Positions 8,992 to 64,000 of a stretch of 64,000 nucleotides of DNA are shown piece after piece. The notes below the pieces were generated by a model, which saw nothing but the letters and a program-made list of their open reading frames with translations, was not told where the DNA came from and searched no databases. Source of the stretch: an uncultured archaeon (GTDB taxonomy: Archaea > Aenigmatarchaeota > Aenigmatarchaeia > CG10238-14 > SCSR01); assembly GCA_964373665.1 (NCBI GenBank), contig CAYJVM010000001.1, positions 93,325 to 157,324 of the forward strand. Direction: 5' to 3'. Each line of letters starts with the position of its first letter. The stretch's first letter is position 1. Both the position numbers and the translations under genes were made by a program.

Positions 8992-9076
8992 TGGACCAGC
9001 TGGGATTTGAACCCAGAGCCTCTTCCTTGCGAAGGAAGCGTTATAGGTTAACTATCTACCGTTGATCTACTGGCCC
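8992..9076 (-). tRNA. tRNA, probably Ala(CGC), with a ~12-nt insertion in the D region
   Basis: On the reverse complement the acceptor stem is GGGCCAG/CTGGTCC with a G3:U70 pair, the T-arm is CTGGG-TTCAAAT-CCCAG, and the anticodon arm is CTTCC-TTCGCAA-GGAAG. The 5' half is 12 nt too long for a standard D-arm. Confidence 0.6.
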
Positions 9077-10532: not shown

Positions 10533-10652
10533 GGGCGAGTAGCTTAGCCTGGTTGGAGCACTCGAACTTAGGTGAAGCTGATAGCAATCAGGCAGACACC
10601 GAGAAAGAGTAAACTTCGGGAGCGGTCAAGAGTTCAAATCTCTTCTCGCCCA
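10533..10652 (+). tRNA. tRNA with ~45-nt intron (isotype unresolved)
   Basis: The acceptor stem is GGGCGAG/CTCGCCC, the D-arm is GCTT-AGCCTGGTTG-GAGC, and the T-arm is AAGAG-TTCAAAT-CTCTT. A long insertion interrupts the anticodon region. Confidence 0.6.
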
Positions 10653-10807
10653 CTTTTATGACCAAACAAGACGAATTAGTTTCCAAAGATGATCTAGAAG
10701 CTATAATTCAAGGAAGAAAATATTTTAGAGACAGGAGAACAAAATCTTTATCCGCGATAAAGAGAAGGTTAAAACTATAGTGCTTGACATAAAAATTCTA
10801 AAAATGC

Positions 10808-13507: not shown

Positions 13508-13620
13508 GCTCCCTTCGTCTAGCCCGGTCAAGGATACAGCCCTTTCGAGTTGTCTCAGAAAGGTTTGATGCAAGATGATAAAGCAAGGCTGTAACGCGGG
13601 TTCAAATCCCGCAGGGAGCA
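13508..13620 (+). tRNA. tRNA-Glu(TTC) with ~38-nt intron
   Basis: The acceptor stem is GCTCCCT/AGGGAGC, the D-loop is AGCCCGGTCAA, the anticodon stem is CAGCC/GGCTG with loop CTTTCG, and the T-arm is GCGGG-TTCAAAT-CCCGC. The intron sits next to the anticodon loop. Confidence 0.75.
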
Positions 13621-51343: not shown

Positions 51344-51643
51344 ATGCGAACTCGGATTAATTTCAATATAAAACATGGTGTAAGAATAAATCTACCTATT
51401 ATTATAATTAAAGAGGACAATTGGTTTGTAGCTCTGGTTCCAACATTGGGTGTTGCGGCACAAGGTAAAACTTTAGATGAAGTTAAAGAAAACATGTCCG
51501 ATTTGCTTGGAATGTATTTTACAAACCCGCATACACCAAAACCAAAAATCAAAACTCTGGTCAATGCCAATATAATATTCTCAACAATTTCTGTCAATGT
51601 GCCAAAAGGTGTTGAAAATACCCAAAGCAATACCGCTGTCTAG
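51344..51643 (+). CDS. hicB: HicB-family antitoxin
   Basis: DNWFVALVPTLGVAAQGKTLDEVKENMSDLL matches the HicB/UPF0150 pattern. Confidence 0.55.
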   Translation: MRTRINFNIKHGVRINLPIIIIKEDNWFVALVPTLGVAAQGKTLDEVKENMSDLLGMYFTNPHTPKPKIKTLVNANIIFSTISVNVPKGVENTQSNTAV

Positions 51644-51839
51644 ACGCAAAGTTGTTCAAATATTACATGGTAATGGATTTGTACTTTCACGGGAAGGTGG
51701 AAGACATACTGAATTTGAGAAGTTGGATGATAAAGGCAAATGGTGGGTAACATATGTCCCTAGACATGCTGAAATCTCTGTAGGTGTTATTCAAGAAATT
51801 ATAAAACAGGCTGGAAAGGAGCGGAGCGAGTTTTGGTAA
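51597..51839 (+). CDS. hicA: HicA-family mRNA interferase toxin
   Basis: KVVQILHGNGFVLSREGGRHTEFEK...VPRHAEISVGVIQEIIKQAG matches the HicA/YcfA fold. The true start is probably internal. Confidence 0.6.
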   Translation: MCQKVLKIPKAIPLSRRKVVQILHGNGFVLSREGGRHTEFEKLDDKGKWWVTYVPRHAEISVGVIQEIIKQAGKERSEFW

Positions 51840-52345
51840 AGAATAAGGCAACCTATTCTTTCGTGTCTACATTATAGTCTTCTTTGTTCATGACACCTTG
51901 AGATTAATCACGATGTTGTTATGTTCTGGCGAAAGATTATCAATTCAGAGATTTGCACAATGCAGAAGTTTTATAAAATATTGTTATTAAAGATGAAGGT
52001 AATACCATAGTTCGTGGCACCAAAATTTGCACAGATTTTGAGCAATGTACACCATCTATAAAAATTCTACTTAAATTCGATTTTTGAGGCTAATAGACTT
52101 GATTTTTAGAGGGTGTTAATGGGCATATCAAATCACTTAAATATAGCATGCACAAAAAATACCTTACTTTTTGTCACATACGAAGTATTCAGAAACAGGC
52201 TCTGTTGGACTGTTAGATGCTATAAAAGTGAAAATTGGTATTTTTGATTGGTCCCTTATTCTGGGGTATTACCAAGATGAATATTTCATATGTTCAACTA
52301 GCACCACTCTTCATACTTAAATAGCTTACTGACTAGTAATTACTA

Positions 52346-52627
52346 ATGGTTCAAAAATATAACCAAAGATTGGAAGAAGCGCGATTGGAACTGGCAGGAA
52401 ACATAAGGGAACGGGTGGCGTATTCTCTGAGAGAGGAAGTTTCTGAATTAGATATTATATCGGCAAGCGATGCCTATTTTAATATTCGAAACGGCATGTT
52501 ATACACGCTCCGCCAAGTTAACGCTAGACAATCGGAAACGGTAGGAATAACACCCGATGAAATACCTCTTGAAGGGTATGATGCTTCTCGACTTCTTGAA
52601 ATAGCCAAAAGAATCGGAGCCGGATAG
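52346..52627 (+). CDS. hypothetical protein
   Basis: ORF only. Confidence 0.3.
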   Translation: MVQKYNQRLEEARLELAGNIRERVAYSLREEVSELDIISASDAYFNIRNGMLYTLRQVNARQSETVGITPDEIPLEGYDASRLLEIAKRIGAG

Positions 52628-52667
52628 AAGCAATTCGCGTTCTTATTTATTTATAAAATCCGAAATA

Positions 52668-53357
52668 ATGTTATCGATATTTATGGCGGAGAGCTCTGGC
52701 GAGAAAAAGCGCAGTAATTTCAAGATGTTCCTTGCATTGTTTCTGATCGCAGGCATAGTTGGTCTGCTTGCCTACGGCAACAAGGGGGACAATGCCGTCA
52801 GCAGCGTTCTAGGCAGGTTCACCAATATAGGCGCAGGGGGCGATGCCTTTGACTTGAGGCTATCGACAGACGCCACTGTGCTTTACGGCAACAGCTTCGC
52901 TCTATCCGGTTCGGACATTACTATTTCAGGCGTCTGCAATGTTGTCAATATAGGTGAGCTTACTATAGAAAGGGAGAACACAAGGTGCACAATTCAGACA
53001 AGCGGCTATTCCGGCAAGTTTGATTACACGCCATTCGGAAGCATAGTTCTGGCAGGCCAGTCTTCAGCGGTAAAGCTTGATACTTATACCTACAGCTCTG
53101 GCAAGCCCGTCAACTTTGAGGTGGAAATAATTCCGATGGGCATGTTTGTGACAGGCATTTCCAAGAGCAAGCTCTCCATGGTGGCGCCTTTCGGAGAGAT
53201 AGCCAAGTTCTCCAACGGCGAGCTGAAGGGAGTGTCCTACCTGAGCGGAACCCCCCTAGACATAAACAATTTAAATGGCAATATCGAATTAAAAGATGGT
53301 GTTCTGACCATTACAGGAGCGGCAACTGCCGTCAAGAGCACCGAATTCACTTGGTGA
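52668..53357 (+). CDS. membrane-anchored beta-rich extracellular protein
   Basis: An N-terminal transmembrane helix followed by a Gly/Ser/Thr-rich domain. Confidence 0.35.
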   Translation: MLSIFMAESSGEKKRSNFKMFLALFLIAGIVGLLAYGNKGDNAVSSVLGRFTNIGAGGDAFDLRLSTDATVLYGNSFALSGSDITISGVCNVVNIGELTIERENTRCTIQTSGYSGKFDYTPFGSIVLAGQSSAVKLDTYTYSSGKPVNFEVEIIPMGMFVTGISKSKLSMVAPFGEIAKFSNGELKGVSYLSGTPLDINNLNGNIELKDGVLTITGAATAVKSTEFTW

Positions 53358-53827
53358 CATTTTTGTATCAAAGAAGGCAAGGAAGAGGAGACTATAACTA
53401 CAATGTGGCCATATTCGTAGACGGGCCGAACATGCTCAGGAAGGAGTTCATGATAGACCTGGCCGAGGTCAGGAGAGTTGCGCGCAAGTTCGGCAGAGTG
53501 ACGATTTCCAAGGTCTTTATCAACCAGTACGCGCCGGAAAAGCTCATAGAGGCCGTCATCAACGAAGGGTTTGAATGTATAATGGTTCTGGGCGAGAAGA
53601 GTTCTGACAACACTTCCGCGGACGTTGACGTCTCAATGACTGTGGCGGCGATGGAGGCTATAATCACGAATGACATTGACGCTGTTGTAATTGTCACTAG
53701 GGACGCCGATTTCCTTCCTGTGATGCAAAAGGCGAAGGAATATGGGAAGAGGGTCATTGTCATAGGCGCCGAGGCCGGATTTTCAGCTTCCTTGCAGAAT
53801 GCTGCTGATCATCTTGAAGTTCTATAA
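53351..53827 (+). CDS. NYN/LabA-like (PIN-fold) domain protein
   Basis: VAIFVDGPNM, DVDVSM and VVIVTRDADFLPVMQKAKEYGKRVIVIG form the NYN signature. Confidence 0.65.
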   Translation: MVTFLYQRRQGRGDYNYNVAIFVDGPNMLRKEFMIDLAEVRRVARKFGRVTISKVFINQYAPEKLIEAVINEGFECIMVLGEKSSDNTSADVDVSMTVAAMEAIITNDIDAVVIVTRDADFLPVMQKAKEYGKRVIVIGAEAGFSASLQNAADHLEVL

Positions 53828-53859
53828 GATTTATATACTCTAAGGCCTTCTAGAAGATT

Positions 53860-54261
53860 ATGACAAACCCAGTTGTGGAAAGTTATACTATACCACATAC
53901 AAGAAATTTTCAGATAATGAATTTAGACACGGCAGGGAGAATAGCTTTACCCTACGGTAGAAGCATTCCTTATTCAAACTTGGATTTTGAACTTGGAAGA
54001 GCGCACCTTGAAGTTGACGTAGCTGGAACTCGAGAAACACACGATTTTGACTATTTGGTTTTGTACACTAACTATGAAGGACGTGTAAAGGTGGATAATC
54101 AGAGCCGAATTTTAATACCAAGAGGTGTTAGAGATCTTCTTAAATTGAGCGATAAGGTTGCTTTAGTTGTTGGCGGCGATGGTGTTCTTGAAATTTGGGA
54201 TTACAATAATTGGAAACAATATAAAGACTTGTATTCAAAGTATAAACGAAAAGGCGAGTAG
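53860..54261 (+). CDS. MraZ-like duplicated SpoVT/AbrB-fold protein
   Basis: Two D-x-x-G/S-R-I-x-(L/I)-P repeats are present ([13 protein letters not shown] and [12 protein letters not shown]). Confidence 0.45.
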
Positions 54262-54509: not shown

Positions 54510-54635
54510 GGGCCCGTAGCTCAGCATGGTAGAGCAGCTGATGCCAAGTTGAAGCTTTTAACCATGTGTGAAAAAGCATTGATTCCCAGATGAAAGGAAA
54601 CCAGTTGGTCGAGGGTTCAAATCCCTCCGGGCCCA
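54510..54635 (+). tRNA. tRNA-Gly(GCC) with ~50-nt intron (Trp not fully excluded)
   Basis: The acceptor stem is GGGCCCG/CGGGCCC, the D-arm is GCTC-AGCATGGTA-GAGC, the anticodon loop is ATGCCAA with U33, the T-arm is GAGGG-TTCAAAT-CCCTC, and the discriminator is A. Confidence 0.65.
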
Positions 54636-54807
54636 TAAAGACTCGTACTTAGTTGTATGCGAGTCTTCTTTATCGCCTTCTCGGCCTCATGCGTCTAAGT
54701 CACTTTTAATGCATCGGTAATGTAGTGAGGTTAGTGAAGCATAAGGAATGTGCATGGGTCTTGCCGTCCATGTAGCGTTTATATGAAGCATCTACTAATT
54801 ACTTTCT

Positions 54808-55176
54808 GTGTTCTCAACAGGTCTCCTCCGTCGTGTGACGGTTAAAAGGCTGGAGCTAGGGAAATCGAAGGAAGAGTTACGTATCGCATTACACATCTAC
54901 GAATGGCAAATCGCTTATCTCCAAAATCTTAATTCGTCAGAGATACGGCAGATGGTGTCTACAAGAAAGAGGATACGATATCTGTCTAGGTCTCTACCAC
55001 ATCAAGTAGGGAAGGCGACAGAATCGCTGGTCAATGATTTGGACGTTAATCTTATCAGCCGACTGAGAAATGAGAAACTTAATGGCCGTGTCAAGAAGAT
55101 ATTGGGTAATAACAGTTATCTTAAACTGGCCAGAATGATTAACAGTGGCAAAGCAAAGTCAAGTAAAGTAAACTAA
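54808..55176 (+). CDS. hypothetical protein (inside putative integrated segment)
   Basis: ORF only. Confidence 0.3.
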   Translation: MFSTGLLRRVTVKRLELGKSKEELRIALHIYEWQIAYLQNLNSSEIRQMVSTRKRIRYLSRSLPHQVGKATESLVNDLDVNLISRLRNEKLNGRVKKILGNNSYLKLARMINSGKAKSSKVN

Positions 55177-55182
55177 TCGCCC

Positions 55183-55461
55183 TTATCTTCTTTGTCTATT
55201 CTGTTCTTCAAGACATGAGCCGTGGGCGTAGCCGGAGTACCAACCGTACTTGCGGGTGTATATCTTGACGGCGTCAAACATCCTGTTGCCTTTTCCACAG
55301 AATGTACATACACGATCTTCGAATCTTGTTGAAAATGATGCTGTCCCTTTCCTCGAACCTCCTTTACCCATTTGACTGATGAGCCATATACCGCCGCCGA
55401 CGATCGCAACCCCTATGATGAAGTAGACTGTTCCCATGTGCCCTCCGCGAACCTCCACCAT
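55183..55461 (-). CDS. small membrane protein with a C-x-x-C...H/C zinc-ribbon-like tail
   Basis: An N-terminal transmembrane helix and the motif CTFCGKG...HGSC. Confidence 0.3.
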   Translation of the reverse strand: MVEVRGGHMGTVYFIIGVAIVGGGIWLISQMGKGGSRKGTASFSTRFEDRVCTFCGKGNRMFDAVKIYTRKYGWYSGYAHGSCLEEQNRQRR

Positions 55462-55684
55462 CTCTGGGGATGATACGCAAGGCGAGACACGCAGTCAAGA
55501 CCACAGGCTCAAGTTTTTTCATGATCAATCATGATAGAAGAGATAAGTGGCAAGCTGAGTACATTGACCCATGCGACTGCGATTCAGGGTGGGTGAGCCT
55601 TCGGGCAATCAGACCTGAAGGCGAAATCTCGGCCGATGCCAGCCGAAGCGGCGAGCACGAGACCTGAACCGCTTAGCGTGCCGG

Positions 55685-55700
55685 TCCCTCCGGGCCCATA
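55685..55700 (+). repeat. direct repeat identical to the 3' end of tRNA-Gly (tccctccgggcccata)
   Basis: A 16/16 match to positions 54622-54637. It is preceded by gtgccgg. Confidence 0.7.
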
Positions 55701-55776
55701 CCTAAATGGGTAAATCCCAGTTCATTCTGCCGTCAACTTTATATGTTCCAAAGACCCACTAATTAGTGGGTATAGT

Positions 55777-56031
55777 ATGCCTGTAGTGAAGTTAGACGAA
55801 AAGGGAAGGATACAGCTCCCGAAAACATTCAGAAAGGAACTGCATCTAAGACCGCGCCAACCTCTTGTTGTCAAAAAGCAAGGGGAACTTCTCACCGTGA
55901 GCAAAGTGACCAAAGTCAGTCCTAATGAGGATCCTCTGCTCAGGGACATTATTCTGAATCCTCTCAAGAGCAAGAAAAAGGTCACCAAAGAACTTCTCGA
56001 AGAATTGAAAGACGAAATGTGGTCCGAGTGA
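55777..56031 (+). CDS. vapB: VapB-type antitoxin (SpoVT/AbrB domain)
   Basis: VKLDEKGRIQLPKTFRKELHL is a swapped-hairpin motif. Confidence 0.6.
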   Translation: MPVVKLDEKGRIQLPKTFRKELHLRPRQPLVVKKQGELLTVSKVTKVSPNEDPLLRDIILNPLKSKKKVTKELLEELKDEMWSE

Positions 56032-56423
56032 TCCTAGTCGATTCGAATATCTGGATTTTTGCTGAAGTCAAAGGCGGCGACGAGCATTATCTGGCAGTTG
56101 AAAAGTTGCGGCACCAACTTGGGCGGGGTGTTGTAACCAACGTAATAGTATGTTCGGATGTATTTCATTTGCTTAGCAGGATGTTCGGCTCTGCCGTCGC
56201 GAGGGCTAGACTGGATACGATACTTAATCATCCGGCTGTCGAATGGCACGAGTTCACCCGGACGCAGATGCTAGAAGCCGTGAGATTGTCTCATGCGAAG
56301 CTGTTGCGCATCAATGACGCACTGATTGCTCAACAAGCCAGTGAATTGAACGTTCCAATCCTCACCGACAACGTGAAGGATTTCAGGAAAGTCAAGGGCA
56401 TTGAAATTATCCCGTTAAGATAA
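56019..56423 (+). CDS. vapC: VapC PIN-domain toxin
   Basis: ILVDSNIWIF, ...ND and ...TDN are the PIN acidic residues. Confidence 0.75.
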   Translation: MVRVILVDSNIWIFAEVKGGDEHYLAVEKLRHQLGRGVVTNVIVCSDVFHLLSRMFGSAVARARLDTILNHPAVEWHEFTRTQMLEAVRLSHAKLLRINDALIAQQASELNVPILTDNVKDFRKVKGIEIIPLR

Positions 56424-56476
56424 TTGCCCACGTTTAAGAGGGATAGCCACATGGACCTGAACCATTTGAGCCTTGG

Positions 56477-56489
56477 TCCCTCCGGGCCA
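56477..56489 (+). repeat. second direct repeat of the tRNA-Gly 3' end (tccctccgggcca)
   Basis: A 12-nt exact match to the tRNA 3' strand. The upstream context gacctgaacc...ggtccct parallels repeat 1. Confidence 0.6.
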
Positions 56490-56497
56490 TCCTAAAA

Positions 56498-57118
56498 TTA
56501 CTTCCTCAAAACTCCAAACGCTTGATTTGTTCCCATTTTTTGGAAGAAGCCTAATACTATGTTAAGCATACCAAGATGCTCTACTAAATACGCGCGATTC
56601 AGCGGACCGACATCAATCGGTTCATATCCTAGATCACTAGCCAGTTGTGAAACCTTCTCTTTGGCTGTTTGGTCATCGCTACAGATGAAAACGTTCGCTT
56701 TTCCTTCTTTAAAACTGAGTGACGATTCAAGAACTTGGGCGAAAAGTGTATTAAAGGCTTTGACTATTTTCGCATCTGGAACAATCTTTGCAATCTCTTC
56801 TGATGCAGATGTTGTAACATCCAAACCACTGAAATCCTGTTTAAGCGGATTTGAAATATCGACCAGCACTTTTCCTTTCAAATTTCCTGCAGTCTTTAGA
56901 ACATCATTCATTGCACTCCACGGCACTGCCAATATCAAAACATCGCCAAACTCAACGGCCTCCTTTATAGAACCTCCCATGAACTTTCCTACAGACGCAG
57001 ACAAATTTCTTGCCTTCTCAGGTTCCCTGGAACCGATAAAGACTTCATGTGATGTCTTCGCCAAGCTCTTTGCGAAAGCGGTTCCCATATGACCGGTTCC
57101 TATTATTCCTATCCTCAT
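56498..57118 (-). CDS. NADP oxidoreductase, coenzyme-F420-dependent family (Fno/Npd-like)
   Basis: A Rossmann N-terminus (MRIGIIGTGHMGTAFA) with a P5CR-like fold. Confidence 0.55.
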   Translation of the reverse strand: MRIGIIGTGHMGTAFAKSLAKTSHEVFIGSREPEKARNLSASVGKFMGGSIKEAVEFGDVLILAVPWSAMNDVLKTAGNLKGKVLVDISNPLKQDFSGLDVTTSASEEIAKIVPDAKIVKAFNTLFAQVLESSLSFKEGKANVFICSDDQTAKEKVSQLASDLGYEPIDVGPLNRAYLVEHLGMLNIVLGFFQKMGTNQAFGVLRK

Positions 57119-60125: not shown

Positions 60126-60158
60126 ACAGATAAATTACGCAAACCCTATAGATATAAT

Positions 60159-60548: not shown

Positions 60549-60633
60549 GGGCCCATAGCTCAGCATGGTAGAGCAGCTCGCTCTTAATTTTGGGGTTACG
60601 AGACGGTCAAGGGTTCGAATCCCTTTGGGCCCA
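60549..60633 (+). tRNA. tRNA-Lys(CTT) with ~11-nt intron
   Basis: The acceptor stem is GGGCCCA/TGGGCCC, the D-arm is GCTC-AGCATGGTA-GAGC, the anticodon loop is CTCTTAA, and the T-arm is AAGGG-TTCGAAT-CCCTT. Confidence 0.7.
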
Positions 60634-60752
60634 CTGCCGTTTGGGTTTGAAACCCCTTTAAGGACACTGAATCCGTACTTCGATGGGTCCGGAGACGGAC
60701 CGGCGTCGACAGGGCCAGCATTGGACTCTTCGGTTTCAGCGGAGGGTCTGCC

Positions 60753-61217
60753 GTGTCGGTGCTGGTAGCGGGTACACGTCCAAGCTGGGTGAAGTCTCTG
60801 GTCGTATACACGCTGCCATGCGACCTCTCCGGCTACCTGTGGTATTTCGAAAGGTTCGCTCCTCGCTCGCTGGATCGTTTCTATACGGACGGGAAGGCTT
60901 GGCTCCCTGGTTTGGGGGACTATCTGAAGAGGTCGTTTCTAGACGACCTCTTCAACCACAATATCAAGCGAGAGATTGCGCGCCTAAGGATACCGATGCT
61001 GCTGATTCAGCCAGACAACGATGACGAGGTGCCAAAATGGTGCAGCGACCAAGCGTATGAGCTAAAACCAGAACCGAAGAACTATTTTCTCATCAAAGGG
61101 ACTCATACTATGCATTTGCGTGACGCCTCAGGTGGGCCAACTGGTTGGAACTTTGAACAGGAGGAAGAAGTGACCGGAAAGACGTTGGAGTGGTTCAAGA
61201 CAACGCTCTCAACGTGA
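60753..61217 (+). pseudogene. C-terminal fragment of an alpha/beta-hydrolase (dienelactone-hydrolase/peptidase-like)
   Basis: IPMLLIQPDNDDEVP and KGTHTMHL resemble the catalytic Asp and His blocks. No N-terminal nucleophile-elbow region is present. Confidence 0.4.
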
Positions 61218-61706
61218 GAGATAGACCGACCGTTGAAACTCGAGGACGTCAGACAAACATAGTGAGAATGGGCCGAGGATGGTGTCTACCTCCGTTTCAC
61301 CCAAGGCCATTCTATAGCCGCGCGAGTCATCGATCACGTGTATCCACTCGATGTACGGTACGTAACGAGGCAGGGCTGATCCTACAGCCTGGTACCCGGC
61401 CAATTGGCCACGGATGGTTAGGAGTTTGAGCGGGTTGGACAAGGTGAACTGGATGGCACTCTTAAATTCCCCGGGACGGCCGCCGAGCCGTGTCTGGTCA
61501 CGATATCCCTTTAGGTGGCCGAACAGGAAGTCCTCTCCGGGGAGAAGCGGGTGGGTTGATCCAAGCTGAATTTGGCGTCGATAACCCTCCTCGCTCATAA
61601 CATGCGTGGTTAGCAGCACCGGCTCGCCGTACTTAAACGGGTGCTTCATGAACATGTCGTCCACTGGGGAATAAAACGTCTGTAACAACCCTTCCATAAT
61701 AATCAA
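61209..61706 (-). CDS. hypothetical protein in GC-rich insert
   Basis: An ORF with ~58% GC. Confidence 0.3.
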   Translation of the reverse strand: MIIMEGLLQTFYSPVDDMFMKHPFKYGEPVLLTTHVMSEEGYRRQIQLGSTHPLLPGEDFLFGHLKGYRDQTRLGGRPGEFKSAIQFTLSNPLKLLTIRGQLAGYQAVGSALPRYVPYIEWIHVIDDSRGYRMALGETEVDTILGPFSLCLSDVLEFQRSVYLSR

Positions 61707-61724
61707 ATTATATTGTGCACTTGA

Positions 61725-62045
61725 CTATAAATACATTCCCTCGATAGGAATTACCTCGGTCGCGGGCGGAACGGAGCAATAGCTAACTGCCAAGACATCG
61801 CCAGCGGGCGTTCCGGCGACGAGAGATCGGACTAGATCGACCCGCTCTCCAAACGACCCATTGCCAGAGCAGCGTTCAGGTTCAGCCCCCTCCGTGCAGC
61901 TACCCAGACCACCGATGACGATGACCTTGCGGTCTTGCGCAGGGGCCTGAGTAAGACGTGCTTCCGAAACAAGGGGGAGGTGGAATGAGGATGCTGCCAA
62001 GAATGCTATGAAAAAAAGGGCCGCTCGAACACCGCGCTTCTCCAT
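61725..62045 (-). CDS. signal-peptide-bearing fragment, possibly the 5' part of a disrupted gene
   Basis: A signal peptide and a Cys-rich segment. It is on the same strand as the downstream ORF and in a different frame. Confidence 0.25.
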   Translation of the reverse strand: MEKRGVRAALFFIAFLAASSFHLPLVSEARLTQAPAQDRKVIVIGGLGSCTEGAEPERCSGNGSFGERVDLVRSLVAGTPAGDVLAVSYCSVPPATEVIPIEGMYL

Positions 62046-62090
62046 AGCCTTCCTCCCTGGTGAAATGATGAGATTCCGGGGCTCGATGTA

Positions 62091-62705
62091 CTATAAACCG
62101 AGGGTGAGTATGAAAAAGACCACGTGCGTGGGAAAAATGGGTACCAAGAGTGACAGAAGTGCGACAAGAGTAGCTTGTGGAGCACTTAGGCGGTCCATGA
62201 TAGCAAAACCGCGGTAGCTCAGGCGGAAGGACCACACGAGAGACCCTAGCTGAGCAAGTAACAGAGTCCCCTGAACAATCTCTATGGAAAGTGGACCGCT
62301 AACGGTATTCTCGGACAATGAGAACATGAGAACCGTTATGAAGACCCAATGAAAGACGACGAAGGGGGCTAGGCCGAAAATGACCGCTTGTGCTGTATTT
62401 GCAACCTCAAGTCTGCCCATTGCAAACTTCACGACAAAAGCGACGAGCGTTGCAGTAGCGTAGAGGAACAGTCCGCTGCCCAGCGGGATTAGGGGTACGG
62501 GGGCCCAAGTCTCGTGATGTGCCAAGAACGAGGGACCCGCAATGAGCGTGAACAGTAGAGAGGTTGCGAGCAGCATGCCTGCCAAGTAGATAAATGCGGA
62601 CCTAGTCGATCGGCGCTGTTCAGAGCCTGGGAAAAACCGGGAAAACGCAGCTAAGAGGCGGCCGATATAAGGAGTTTGTTTGGAGGCTAAGGAGGTGGTG
62701 GACAT
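62091..62705 (-). CDS. polytopic membrane protein
   Basis: Five to six transmembrane helices; GC-rich. Confidence 0.35.
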   Translation of the reverse strand: MSTTSLASKQTPYIGRLLAAFSRFFPGSEQRRSTRSAFIYLAGMLLATSLLFTLIAGPSFLAHHETWAPVPLIPLGSGLFLYATATLVAFVVKFAMGRLEVANTAQAVIFGLAPFVVFHWVFITVLMFSLSENTVSGPLSIEIVQGTLLLAQLGSLVWSFRLSYRGFAIMDRLSAPQATLVALLSLLVPIFPTHVVFFILTLGL

Positions 62706-63789
62706 AATACAAGTAGGGTTTCGACAAGCTTAAAGATAAGGGTAGGTTAGCACTATCGGACGTTTGCTGCGGATGTCACCGTGACCAGGAAGGCTCTTCG
62801 TCCTTCGCTTGGTTGATCGTGAGGTTCTGAAGGTTGGCCGCAGCAGCCTGAGCCACACCCCACACTTGATTGCGAATTCCTCTGCGGGGCAAGCGTCCGG
62901 CTCAGACAGGATCAGGCGGCGGGCGAACGGATAGCGATGCAGCCGCTGGCGAGAAAGGGTATTCAGGTGGTAGGCGGCGGGTAAGCACGCATGGTTAAGT
63001 TTCGGGGCTTCTTATAGGGGATAAACGTCGACTAGCCGTCTAGGCCAAGCGAATAGACCAACCCTCGCCTACTGGGGAAACGAATCGCCTGTCTTTGCTC
63101 ACTGAGGCAGCAAGGCAGGCGATCCTCTTCGTGGTTGTGAGAATGCCGCGAGCAATGTTTCGGGCCTGCCGACGAGTGACCGGGTGCCCTATTCGACAAT
63201 TGTAAGCCAGAATCAGGCCAGCCAACTGGTCACTTAGATGTTGATGACAAGTCATAAAAGTACTATGGCTTCCATGATATATATACTTTTCAGGGCCTGT
63301 ACAACGCTCCTGCCTGACTGCAGGATACTTCAATGGTGATCCGTCCAGGCGCAAGAAGAATTGCCCGCTATGGAGGACAGCCCCACTCCTGTCGCGTTCC
63401 CGCTCATCGGTTGAGATTGGCGACCGATAGTGCTTGCCTGGAAGGAAGAAACGTGGGATTCATGGTTCTCGTTCCTTTGCGGTCTCGGGGCGCCGTCGAG
63501 TACGTAGGCCGACAAGAGATGCCGCTGGGAATCAGGCGCTGCCGCGGGTGGGCTGGCTGGCTCTCTATGCCCACTGGGACTTCTGCCGATTATCGACCAA
63601 GAAAGCACTCACCATCTCTGGCTGGCGGCCTCTCGGTTACTTGGTCATCGTCTTCGCGGAGGTCGGACCCATCATAGTCCGATCGGATCGGATGTCAACC
63701 CATCTTCGGTGGGTCGACTGGCCCTTCTCCACGCCGAAGCGGGTCAGATGTGGCGCCGAGCGCGAGATTCAAACCTGTTCCTGTGCCGG

Positions 63790-63803
63790 TCCCTTTGGGC
63801 CCA
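63790..63803 (+). repeat. direct repeat identical to the 3' end of tRNA-Lys (tccctttgggccca)
   Basis: A 14/14 match to 60620-60633. It is preceded by gtgccgg and marks the return to AT-rich sequence. Confidence 0.7.
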
Positions 63804-64000
63804 TCGACCTGGATAATCAAATATCTTTATACAATCTAAATTACTATACATGAGAATTCCTATAAGCATTTTATTTATAATATCCTTTTTGATAATACCC
63901 GTGGCACATGCTGAAGTTGATAGCATACCTTTAACATTCGTTTCCGAAAACTCCAATGGCACACTCTTCAACCTTGGTGAATTAAAAAATTATGAAGTTG

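Follow-up and report, generated by a model that had tools for sequence, protein, structure and literature searches.

The 64-kb stretch of archaeal DNA analysed here, called the window below, carries close to its right end a 3.2-kb segment (positions 60634-63803), rich in guanine plus cytosine (GC), directly behind a transfer RNA gene, tRNA-Lys(CTT). This segment is probably the remnant of a mobile element that was integrated site-specifically at the tRNA gene. It ends in an exact copy of the last 14 nucleotides (nt) of the tRNA, differs in composition from the sequence on both sides, starts with a truncated gene, lacks an integrase gene and has at its right end an attachment (att) arm homologous to that of a smaller insert behind another tRNA gene. 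The insert itself is of an ordinary kind, and a useful further finding is that a related att arm is present again at a neighbouring tRNA, behind which two mini-inserts are stacked.

The tRNA-Lys(CTT) gene, which is the integration target, occupies 60549-60633 of the forward strand and is scored 56.5 bits by the Rfam tRNA model (RF00005). When introns are allowed (option -i), ARAGORN names it Lys(ctt) and places an 11-nt intron after position 38, and the intron-less run leaves the anticodon unnamed; the anticodon-loop intron is 11-13 nt long. Its last 14 nt, TCCCTTTGGGCCCA (60620-60633, +), span the last base of the T-loop, the 3’ strand of the T-stem, the 3’ strand of the acceptor stem and the discriminator, and form the core of the left attachment site (attL), of which the tRNA is the host (attB) side. 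The core of the right attachment site (attR), at 63790-63803 (+), is an exact repeat of TCCCTTTGGGCCCA that corresponds to the displaced 3’ end of the tRNA and is preceded by GG where the tRNA has AA. Exactly two copies of TCCCTTTGGGCCCA are found in the window, and dinucleotide shuffles give a mean of 0.49 matches to the 14-mer even with two mismatches permitted. Part of the tRNA is directly repeated at both borders and the tRNA itself is intact, as is found for tRNA-integrated elements. The rebuilt empty site reads ...GGTTCGAATCCCTTTGGGCCCA joined to TCGACCTGGATAATC, and the rebuilt circular junction ...GTGCCGGTCCCTTTGGGCCCA joined to CTGCCGTTTGGG. When attP, the attachment site of an element, recombines with a tRNA 3’ end, the tRNA is rebuilt from element DNA and its former end is displaced to the far border, where it stands as a direct repeat. 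Scars of this form, in which partial tRNA copies border an integrated element, are well documented in archaea (PMC9897764; PMC8371274).

The 3,155 nt between the two repeat copies have a GC content of 54.8%, compared with 42.8 ± 2.7% (maximum 49.1%) in windows of the same length elsewhere in the stretch, which gives the insert a z of 4.4. Its tetranucleotide usage is also the most deviant, with an L1 distance to the remaining window of 0.453 against 0.193 ± 0.043 (maximum 0.342) for the others. Windows of 300 nt within the insert range from 49 to 61% GC; the 400 nt on the 5’ side of the tRNA have 42.8%, and to the right of attR the value is 31.5% in 63804-64000 and 38% across the next 1 kb. 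Base composition and oligonucleotide usage that differ from those of the host are features of genomic islands. The first-pass annotation of this DNA had described a GC-rich insert bounded by a 14-nt copy of the tRNA 3’ end, and TCCCTTTGGGCCCA at both borders bears this out. It had also reported a GC jump from 37% to 58%, to be checked by windowed GC: the discontinuity is real on both sides, but these two figures were only approximate.

If no integration had taken place, the GC-rich genes would be native or acquired in another way and the 14-nt match would be a coincidence or an artefact of assembly. The GC content of third codon positions in the host varies between 0.29 and 0.61, so composition alone is indecisive for single genes, and to that extent this explanation has some room. 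However, the exact repeat sits precisely at both compositional boundaries, the architecture of an insert followed by a tRNA 3’-end copy occurs twice more behind the second tRNA, with homologous arms, and the element-side motif GGTCCCTNNGGGCC has no chance expectation. The sequence that spans the junctions is identical in independent assemblies of three sequencing runs (ERR4904390, ERR4904392 and ERR3478686) and in the 173.7-kb NCBI contig, and a repeat of 14 nt, which is shorter than assembler k-mers, would not mislead an assembler; the insert is thus no assembly artefact. An origin without integration is extremely improbable.

The second target tRNA (54510-54635, +) lies about 6 kb upstream of tRNA-Lys(CTT), with which its first 30 nt are 97% identical. 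It is scored 51.8 bits by Rfam and was missed by ARAGORN in its default mode; with introns allowed, ARAGORN names it tRNA Phe(gaa) with a 54-nt intron. The Rfam alignment places 61 nt between the strands of the anticodon stem (GCUG/CAGU), and within them is a contiguous GCUUUUAAC, from which the gene is probably a tRNA-Lys(UUU) whose two introns are 13 and 39 nt long. Under the Phe(GAA) reading, position 33, where U is almost invariant, would be a G. The 3’ end of this tRNA, TCCCTCCGGGCCCA, has an exact copy at 55685-55698 and a slightly degraded one at 56477-56490. Insert A (54636-55698, +), of 1.06 kb, contains two small orphan open reading frames (ORFs) and ends in the exact copy, which is identical over 16 nt when the two following bases are counted. 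Insert B (55699-56490, +), of 0.79 kb, contains a VapB/VapC toxin-antitoxin pair, with a PIN domain (E = 1.2e-11) and a MazE/MraZ-like antitoxin, and ends in the degraded copy (GGTCCCTCCGGGCC-AT). The tRNA-proximal repeat pair is perfect across 16 nt and the distal copy is the same minus one base. Such an arrangement is expected if elements entered the intact tRNA-proximal site one after another, B being the older of the two.

The right, element-side att arm of the tRNA-Lys(CTT) insert (63752-63789, +) is homologous to the right arm of insert A. The right ends of these two inserts have in common a 52-nt repeat, core included, that is 75% identical. In the 38 nt on the 5’ side of the core, 26/38 positions match when anchored and ungapped (binomial p = 2.7e-7), and the gapped score of the two arms was reached by 0/2000 shuffles. 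The right arms of inserts A and B have GACCTGAACC in common, with a score that 2/2000 shuffles reached. All three element-side copies of the tRNA end carry GG at their start where the tRNAs carry AA, and GGTCCCTNNGGGCC is found in the window only in these three copies, with 0 expected by chance. The arm follows the pattern CGAGA-N4-AACC-N10-GTGCCGG. Since the right arms are homologous, one family of related elements appears to have used both tRNAs, which are probably two tRNA-Lys isoacceptors. Across the three inserts the right arm and the core are kept; in the tRNA-Lys(CTT) insert a truncated gene stands where the left arm would be.

The core flanks, which are conserved between inserts at two tRNAs as if they had once been coding, could suggest the scar of an SSV-type (‘suicidal’) integrase, whose gene contains the core, so that the arm would be leftover int(N) or int(C) coding sequence. 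SSV-type integration is archaeal and directed to tRNA genes (PMC7253208, PMC8371274), although SSV-type integrases have so far been reported from hyperthermophiles (PMC8371274). Of the frames that run through the core, none stays open beyond about 30 codons in both copies, and the conservation of the arm is therefore best read as that of an attachment arm at the DNA level. At the rebuilt junction the sole frame that is open through the core (ORF 63434-63803) ends five codons past it, at the TGA of 60648-60650; this ORF matches no family and the same frame is closed in insert A. The six frames of the right-hand 1.1 kb give no PF16795 or PF00589 signal at E <= 10, and the left junction holds a hydrolase fragment instead of an int fragment. 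An SSV-type element, which is very unlikely on this evidence, was rejected, as neither a split int(N)/int(C) gene with PF16795 nor a core within a recognisable ORF at the rebuilt junction was found.

The truncated gene at the left end is an alpha/beta-hydrolase pseudogene (60651-61217, +). Its translation comprises the C-terminal two thirds of the protein, among them the GFSGGS nucleophile elbow and the Asp and His regions. A start codon is absent, an in-frame TGA (60648-60650) stands directly on the 5’ side of the pseudogene, and the homology begins at most about 17 nt from the att core. Among 5.8 billion clusters, the full-length family has seven members of 268-279 amino acids (aa), which are 51-62% identical to the fragment, and a profile built from them matches the window over positions 91-275 of 275 only. 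A C-terminal hydrolase fragment without its N-terminus had been described in the first-pass annotation, and it is confirmed by this profile; the uninterrupted hydrolase that it proposed to look for exists elsewhere in the form of the seven homologues. In a profile search the N-terminal 90 residues were not found at the right end, in the rebuilt circular junction or anywhere in the window. The hydrolase is therefore truncated rather than split, and a division of the gene by the integration itself was rejected. The neighbourhoods of the hydrolase homologues are unrelated, with GC contents of 47-62% and both archaeal-like and bacterial-like contexts among them, so these homologues indicate no donor lineage. 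At 61275-61343 (-), in the C-terminal part of the neighbouring ORF165, IHVIDDSRGYRMALGETEVDTIL resembles positions 68-90 of the hydrolase profile, just before the truncation point; with an insignificant E of 5.7, this resemblance is probably spurious.

From these features a history is proposed in which the kind of recombinase, the sequence of events and the mechanism of the deletion are inferred. A tyrosine-type site-specific integrase would have inserted the element into the 3’ end of the tRNA-Lys(CTT) gene. Recombination inside the 14-bp identity block would have rebuilt the tRNA 3’ end from element DNA (attL) and moved the original 3’ end to the far border (attR), and the right end would have retained the attachment arm of the element, which is homologous to the arms of the two smaller inserts behind the 54510 tRNA. 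The hydrolase, which abuts the core without its first 90 codons, suggests a secondary deletion anchored at attL that would have taken the left arm, the integrase and the 5’ end of the hydrolase. This deletion may have been an aberrant excision by the integrase, with attL and a secondary site as its ends; alternatively, selection for the tRNA may have set its left limit. These two mechanisms are favoured because a random deletion would stop 17 nt or less from the core only by coincidence. The product, with one pseudogene, three apparently intact genes without an assigned function and about 1 kb in which no gene is recognisable, is predicted to be unable to excise by itself. The idea of an integrated-element remnant, put forward in the first-pass annotation, is in line with the foreign composition and the tRNA 3’-end direct repeat of an element that cannot move alone. 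The added description of the insert as old and decaying is supported in part, by the truncated gene and the 1.1 kb without a recognisable gene; on the other hand, three of the ORFs appear undamaged and the two 14-nt copies have not diverged.

Several observations weigh against an integrated element as the source of the segment. A genomic island is expected to contain an integrase gene, and neither such a gene nor a vestige of one was found inside the insert, either among its ORFs or in a six-frame Pfam scan of the 1.1 kb without a recognisable gene; nor is an integrase or a fragment of one associated with any of the three inserts. As there is no integrase inside next to the att site, the segment is classed as a remnant and not as an intact element. 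The 14-bp identity block is short for a tRNA-targeting integrase, and the left (tRNA-proximal) arms of the three inserts have no mutual similarity. The empty site was not demonstrated, as the collections searched contained no close relative: the exact pattern of the tRNA 5’ half had 0 matches in GTDB representative genomes, and neither the homologues of the neighbouring F420-oxidoreductase (28-41% identical) nor the orthologues of the S8 peptidase that follows the insert (54% and 47%) are syntenic. Intact relatives of the element were sought with arm-plus-core patterns, which had 0 matches in viral contigs; the insert proteins were not found in viral contigs either. In JGI metagenomes the patterns had three matches, one region on two contigs and one other, which lie in coding or unrelated GC-rich DNA and look like chance.

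The first-pass annotation had proposed to look for an integrase past the window edge. In the sequence read from this genome, which comprises about 80 kb, host-like genes follow the insert, and the first integrase is found about 10.4 kb past attR, where it adjoins another tRNA and belongs to a separate element. This tRNA is a tRNA-Glu-like gene with an intron (L039 13917-14003, ~74.0 kb window-equivalent), which was identified by eye and is reported neither by ARAGORN nor by Rfam at the gathering threshold. An intact tyrosine integrase of 403 aa (PF00589, E = 1.3e-19) is encoded 62 nt past it, and a block of orphan genes with 26-34% GC and a MarR-like regulator follows to the contig end (L039 13917-20242, about 74.0-80.4 kb). 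The block is probably an intact integrated plasmid or provirus, and this arrangement of tRNA, integrase and element indicates that tRNA-directed tyrosine integrases operate in the host genome. In this element the integrase sits on the side of the tRNA, and it is this tRNA-proximal part that the tRNA-Lys(CTT) insert lacks. The three inserts have no sequence similarity to the element or to the rest of the window, and the core of the element differs from theirs.

The three inserts could be functional rather than dead. They would then be integrase-less, cis-mobilisable mini-elements, whose att sites work and which depend for their movement on an integrase supplied in trans, from another place in the genome or from an incoming element; the attP of that integrase would match GGTCCCTYYGGGCCCA. 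All three (3/3) are without an integrase yet conserve the right arm and the core, the repeats of the tRNA-Lys(CTT) insert and of insert A are still perfect, and the inserts, at 0.8-3.2 kb, are small and their cargo, VapBC for example, is compact. In addition, a related integrase from outside can excise archaeal integrated elements that have no working integrase of their own (PMC8371274). On the other side, the ~80 kb read contain no cognate integrase, the sole integrase having another tRNA core and no shared sequence. The left arms are unconserved, and a truncated gene in place of the left arm would normally destroy the function of attL. All contigs that carry insert genes are identical, and the lack of a second genomic context or a circular form among them also speaks against movement; we regard these elements as unlikely to be mobile in this way. 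The extended claim that the inserts are a family of miniature trans-mobilised elements, which carry small cargo (toxin-antitoxin pairs, membrane proteins) between tRNA sites in a DPANN-like archaeon, seems to us quite unlikely; if true, it would describe an archaeal counterpart of bacterial cis-mobilisable elements.

As the remnant of an integrated element, the insert resembles the archaeal tRNA islands of classical (type II, pNOB8/PYG1/SNJ2-like) tyrosine integrases in its insertion into the 3’ part of a tRNA, in the direct repeat at the far border, in its atypical composition and orphan cargo and in the tandem accumulation at one tRNA. It differs from them in its size of only 3.2 kb, in the lack of an integrase gene or fragment and in the missing left arm, and its identity block has 14 bp, whereas that of PYG1 has 44 bp (PMC9897764). 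The host is also different, being DPANN-like, and few such elements have been described there. With the SSV-type elements of Sulfolobales and Thermococcales it has in common an archaeal host, a tRNA target, an integrated copy without self-excision and conserved core flanks, but here there is no split int(N)/int(C), no PF16795 signal and a core that lies outside any recognisable ORF. In bacteria, cis-mobilisable elements (CIMEs) are short, integrase-less segments bounded by att sites, which stand in tandem at one tRNA or att site; CIMEs and accretion arrays beside integrative and conjugative elements in Streptococcus were reportedly described by Pavlovic, Bellanger et al. The inserts resemble these CIMEs, at the level of sequence, as short att-bounded segments without integrase that are stacked at one site. 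They differ in that no partner element with a matching integrase was identified here and in that the left arm is unconserved.

Islands linked to tRNAs and their decayed scars are textbook matter in archaea and bacteria, and little hinges on a single insert. This one is a record of DNA that was acquired horizontally and integrated at a tRNA gene in a DPANN-like archaeon, from a sparsely sampled group whose mobile elements have been little described. Inserted DNA lies behind three tRNA genes within 26 kb: the inserts at two of them lack an integrase and share an arm, and the third has an intact integrase-bearing element, which together provide a natural series for the study of trimming. The hydrolase cut at the att core hints at integrase-mediated aberrant excision as the trimming mechanism.

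The remaining genes of the insert are on the reverse strand. ORF165 (61209-61706, -), with a likely ATG at 61697, is an intact gene of a very rare family without an assigned function. An exhaustive HMMER search of 1.84 billion representatives gave four matches, which are the protein itself and three others: residues 13-159 align with P0131 (188 aa), residues 19-161 align with P0133 (205 aa), and the third, a 982-aa protein, matches residues 77-104 only. ORF165 has no match in Pfam, PHROG, NCBIfam or PADLOC, and its structure model (mean predicted local distance difference test, pLDDT, of 67.5) has no fold match in the PDB. ORF106 (61725-62045, -) encodes a small protein with a signal-peptide-like N-terminus and no family match. 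The two ORFs have the same frame and are separated by one TAG and six codons (61706-61727); this spacer is AT-rich, and a TTTATA box is found about 27 nt on the 5’ side of the likely ATG of ORF165. They had been taken for one disrupted gene, which is unsupported: ORF165 aligns nearly over its full length, end to end, with the 188- and 205-aa homologues, and none of its homologues has an N-terminal extension that resembles ORF106.

ORF204 (62091-62705, -) encodes an orphan multi-pass membrane protein with a weak similarity to Yip1 (Pfam E = 2e-4, under the curated cut-off); among the 5.8 billion clusters it has no homologue but itself. From 62706 to 63751 follows a GC-rich stretch of about 1.05 kb without a recognisable gene, which has only short Arg-rich ORFs in several frames and a weak periodicity in the frame plot. 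In this right-hand 1.1 kb a six-frame Pfam scan at E <= 10, integrase domains included, and Rfam gave nothing. The stretch could be decayed coding sequence or non-coding DNA of the element. PHROGs, NCBIfam and PADLOC gave only weak hydrolase matches for the insert as a whole.

Past attR, the host flank (63804-64000, +) begins with an AT-rich spacer of 47 nt, which contains a TTTATA box, and continues from 63851 with the first part of a gene for an S8 peptidase of 2,369 aa, immediately past the insert (L002 1747-8856). The full-length relatives of this peptidase are 42-54% identical and limited to a handful of uncultured archaeal contigs, among them one that bears the label Candidatus Aenigmarchaeota, and its best named homologues are from Candidatus Aenigmarchaeota and Woesearchaeota, from which the host lineage is probably DPANN-like. 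Genes for an Rce1-like protein and a Band_7 protein, both host-like, lie downstream of it. The host is an archaeon, as indicated by its intron-bearing tRNAs and its A-type ATP synthase operon.

Contigs of the Logan collection from two runs start within the 3’ part of the 54510 tRNA (54606/54607), and another starts at the tRNA of 10533 (10532); other Logan contigs break at non-repeat positions, and 60132-60136 is listed with the breaks. The contig starts at tRNAs could reflect strain heterogeneity or shared tRNA k-mers. As breaks occur both at tRNAs and at non-repeat positions, no conclusion on an alternative allele was drawn from them. Further tRNA calls that depend on an intron are found at 10533-10653 and 13508-13620 (Leu-tag and Glu-ttc, with introns of 38-41 nt), and a partial tRNA match, over model positions 8-63, lies at 9000-9054 (-). 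Within the F420-dependent oxidoreductase-like gene (56498-57118, -), 34 nt at 56847-56880 are 79% complementary to the 3’ half of the second tRNA (54591-54624), and this inverted tRNA-like fragment may be due to chance or be an old scar. Just on the 5’ side of the 54510 tRNA, a cluster of small genes with 35-47% GC (51344-54261) encodes a HicA toxin with an upstream partner, an NYN-domain protein and a MraZ/AbrB-like protein, a content typical of mobile or defence islands.

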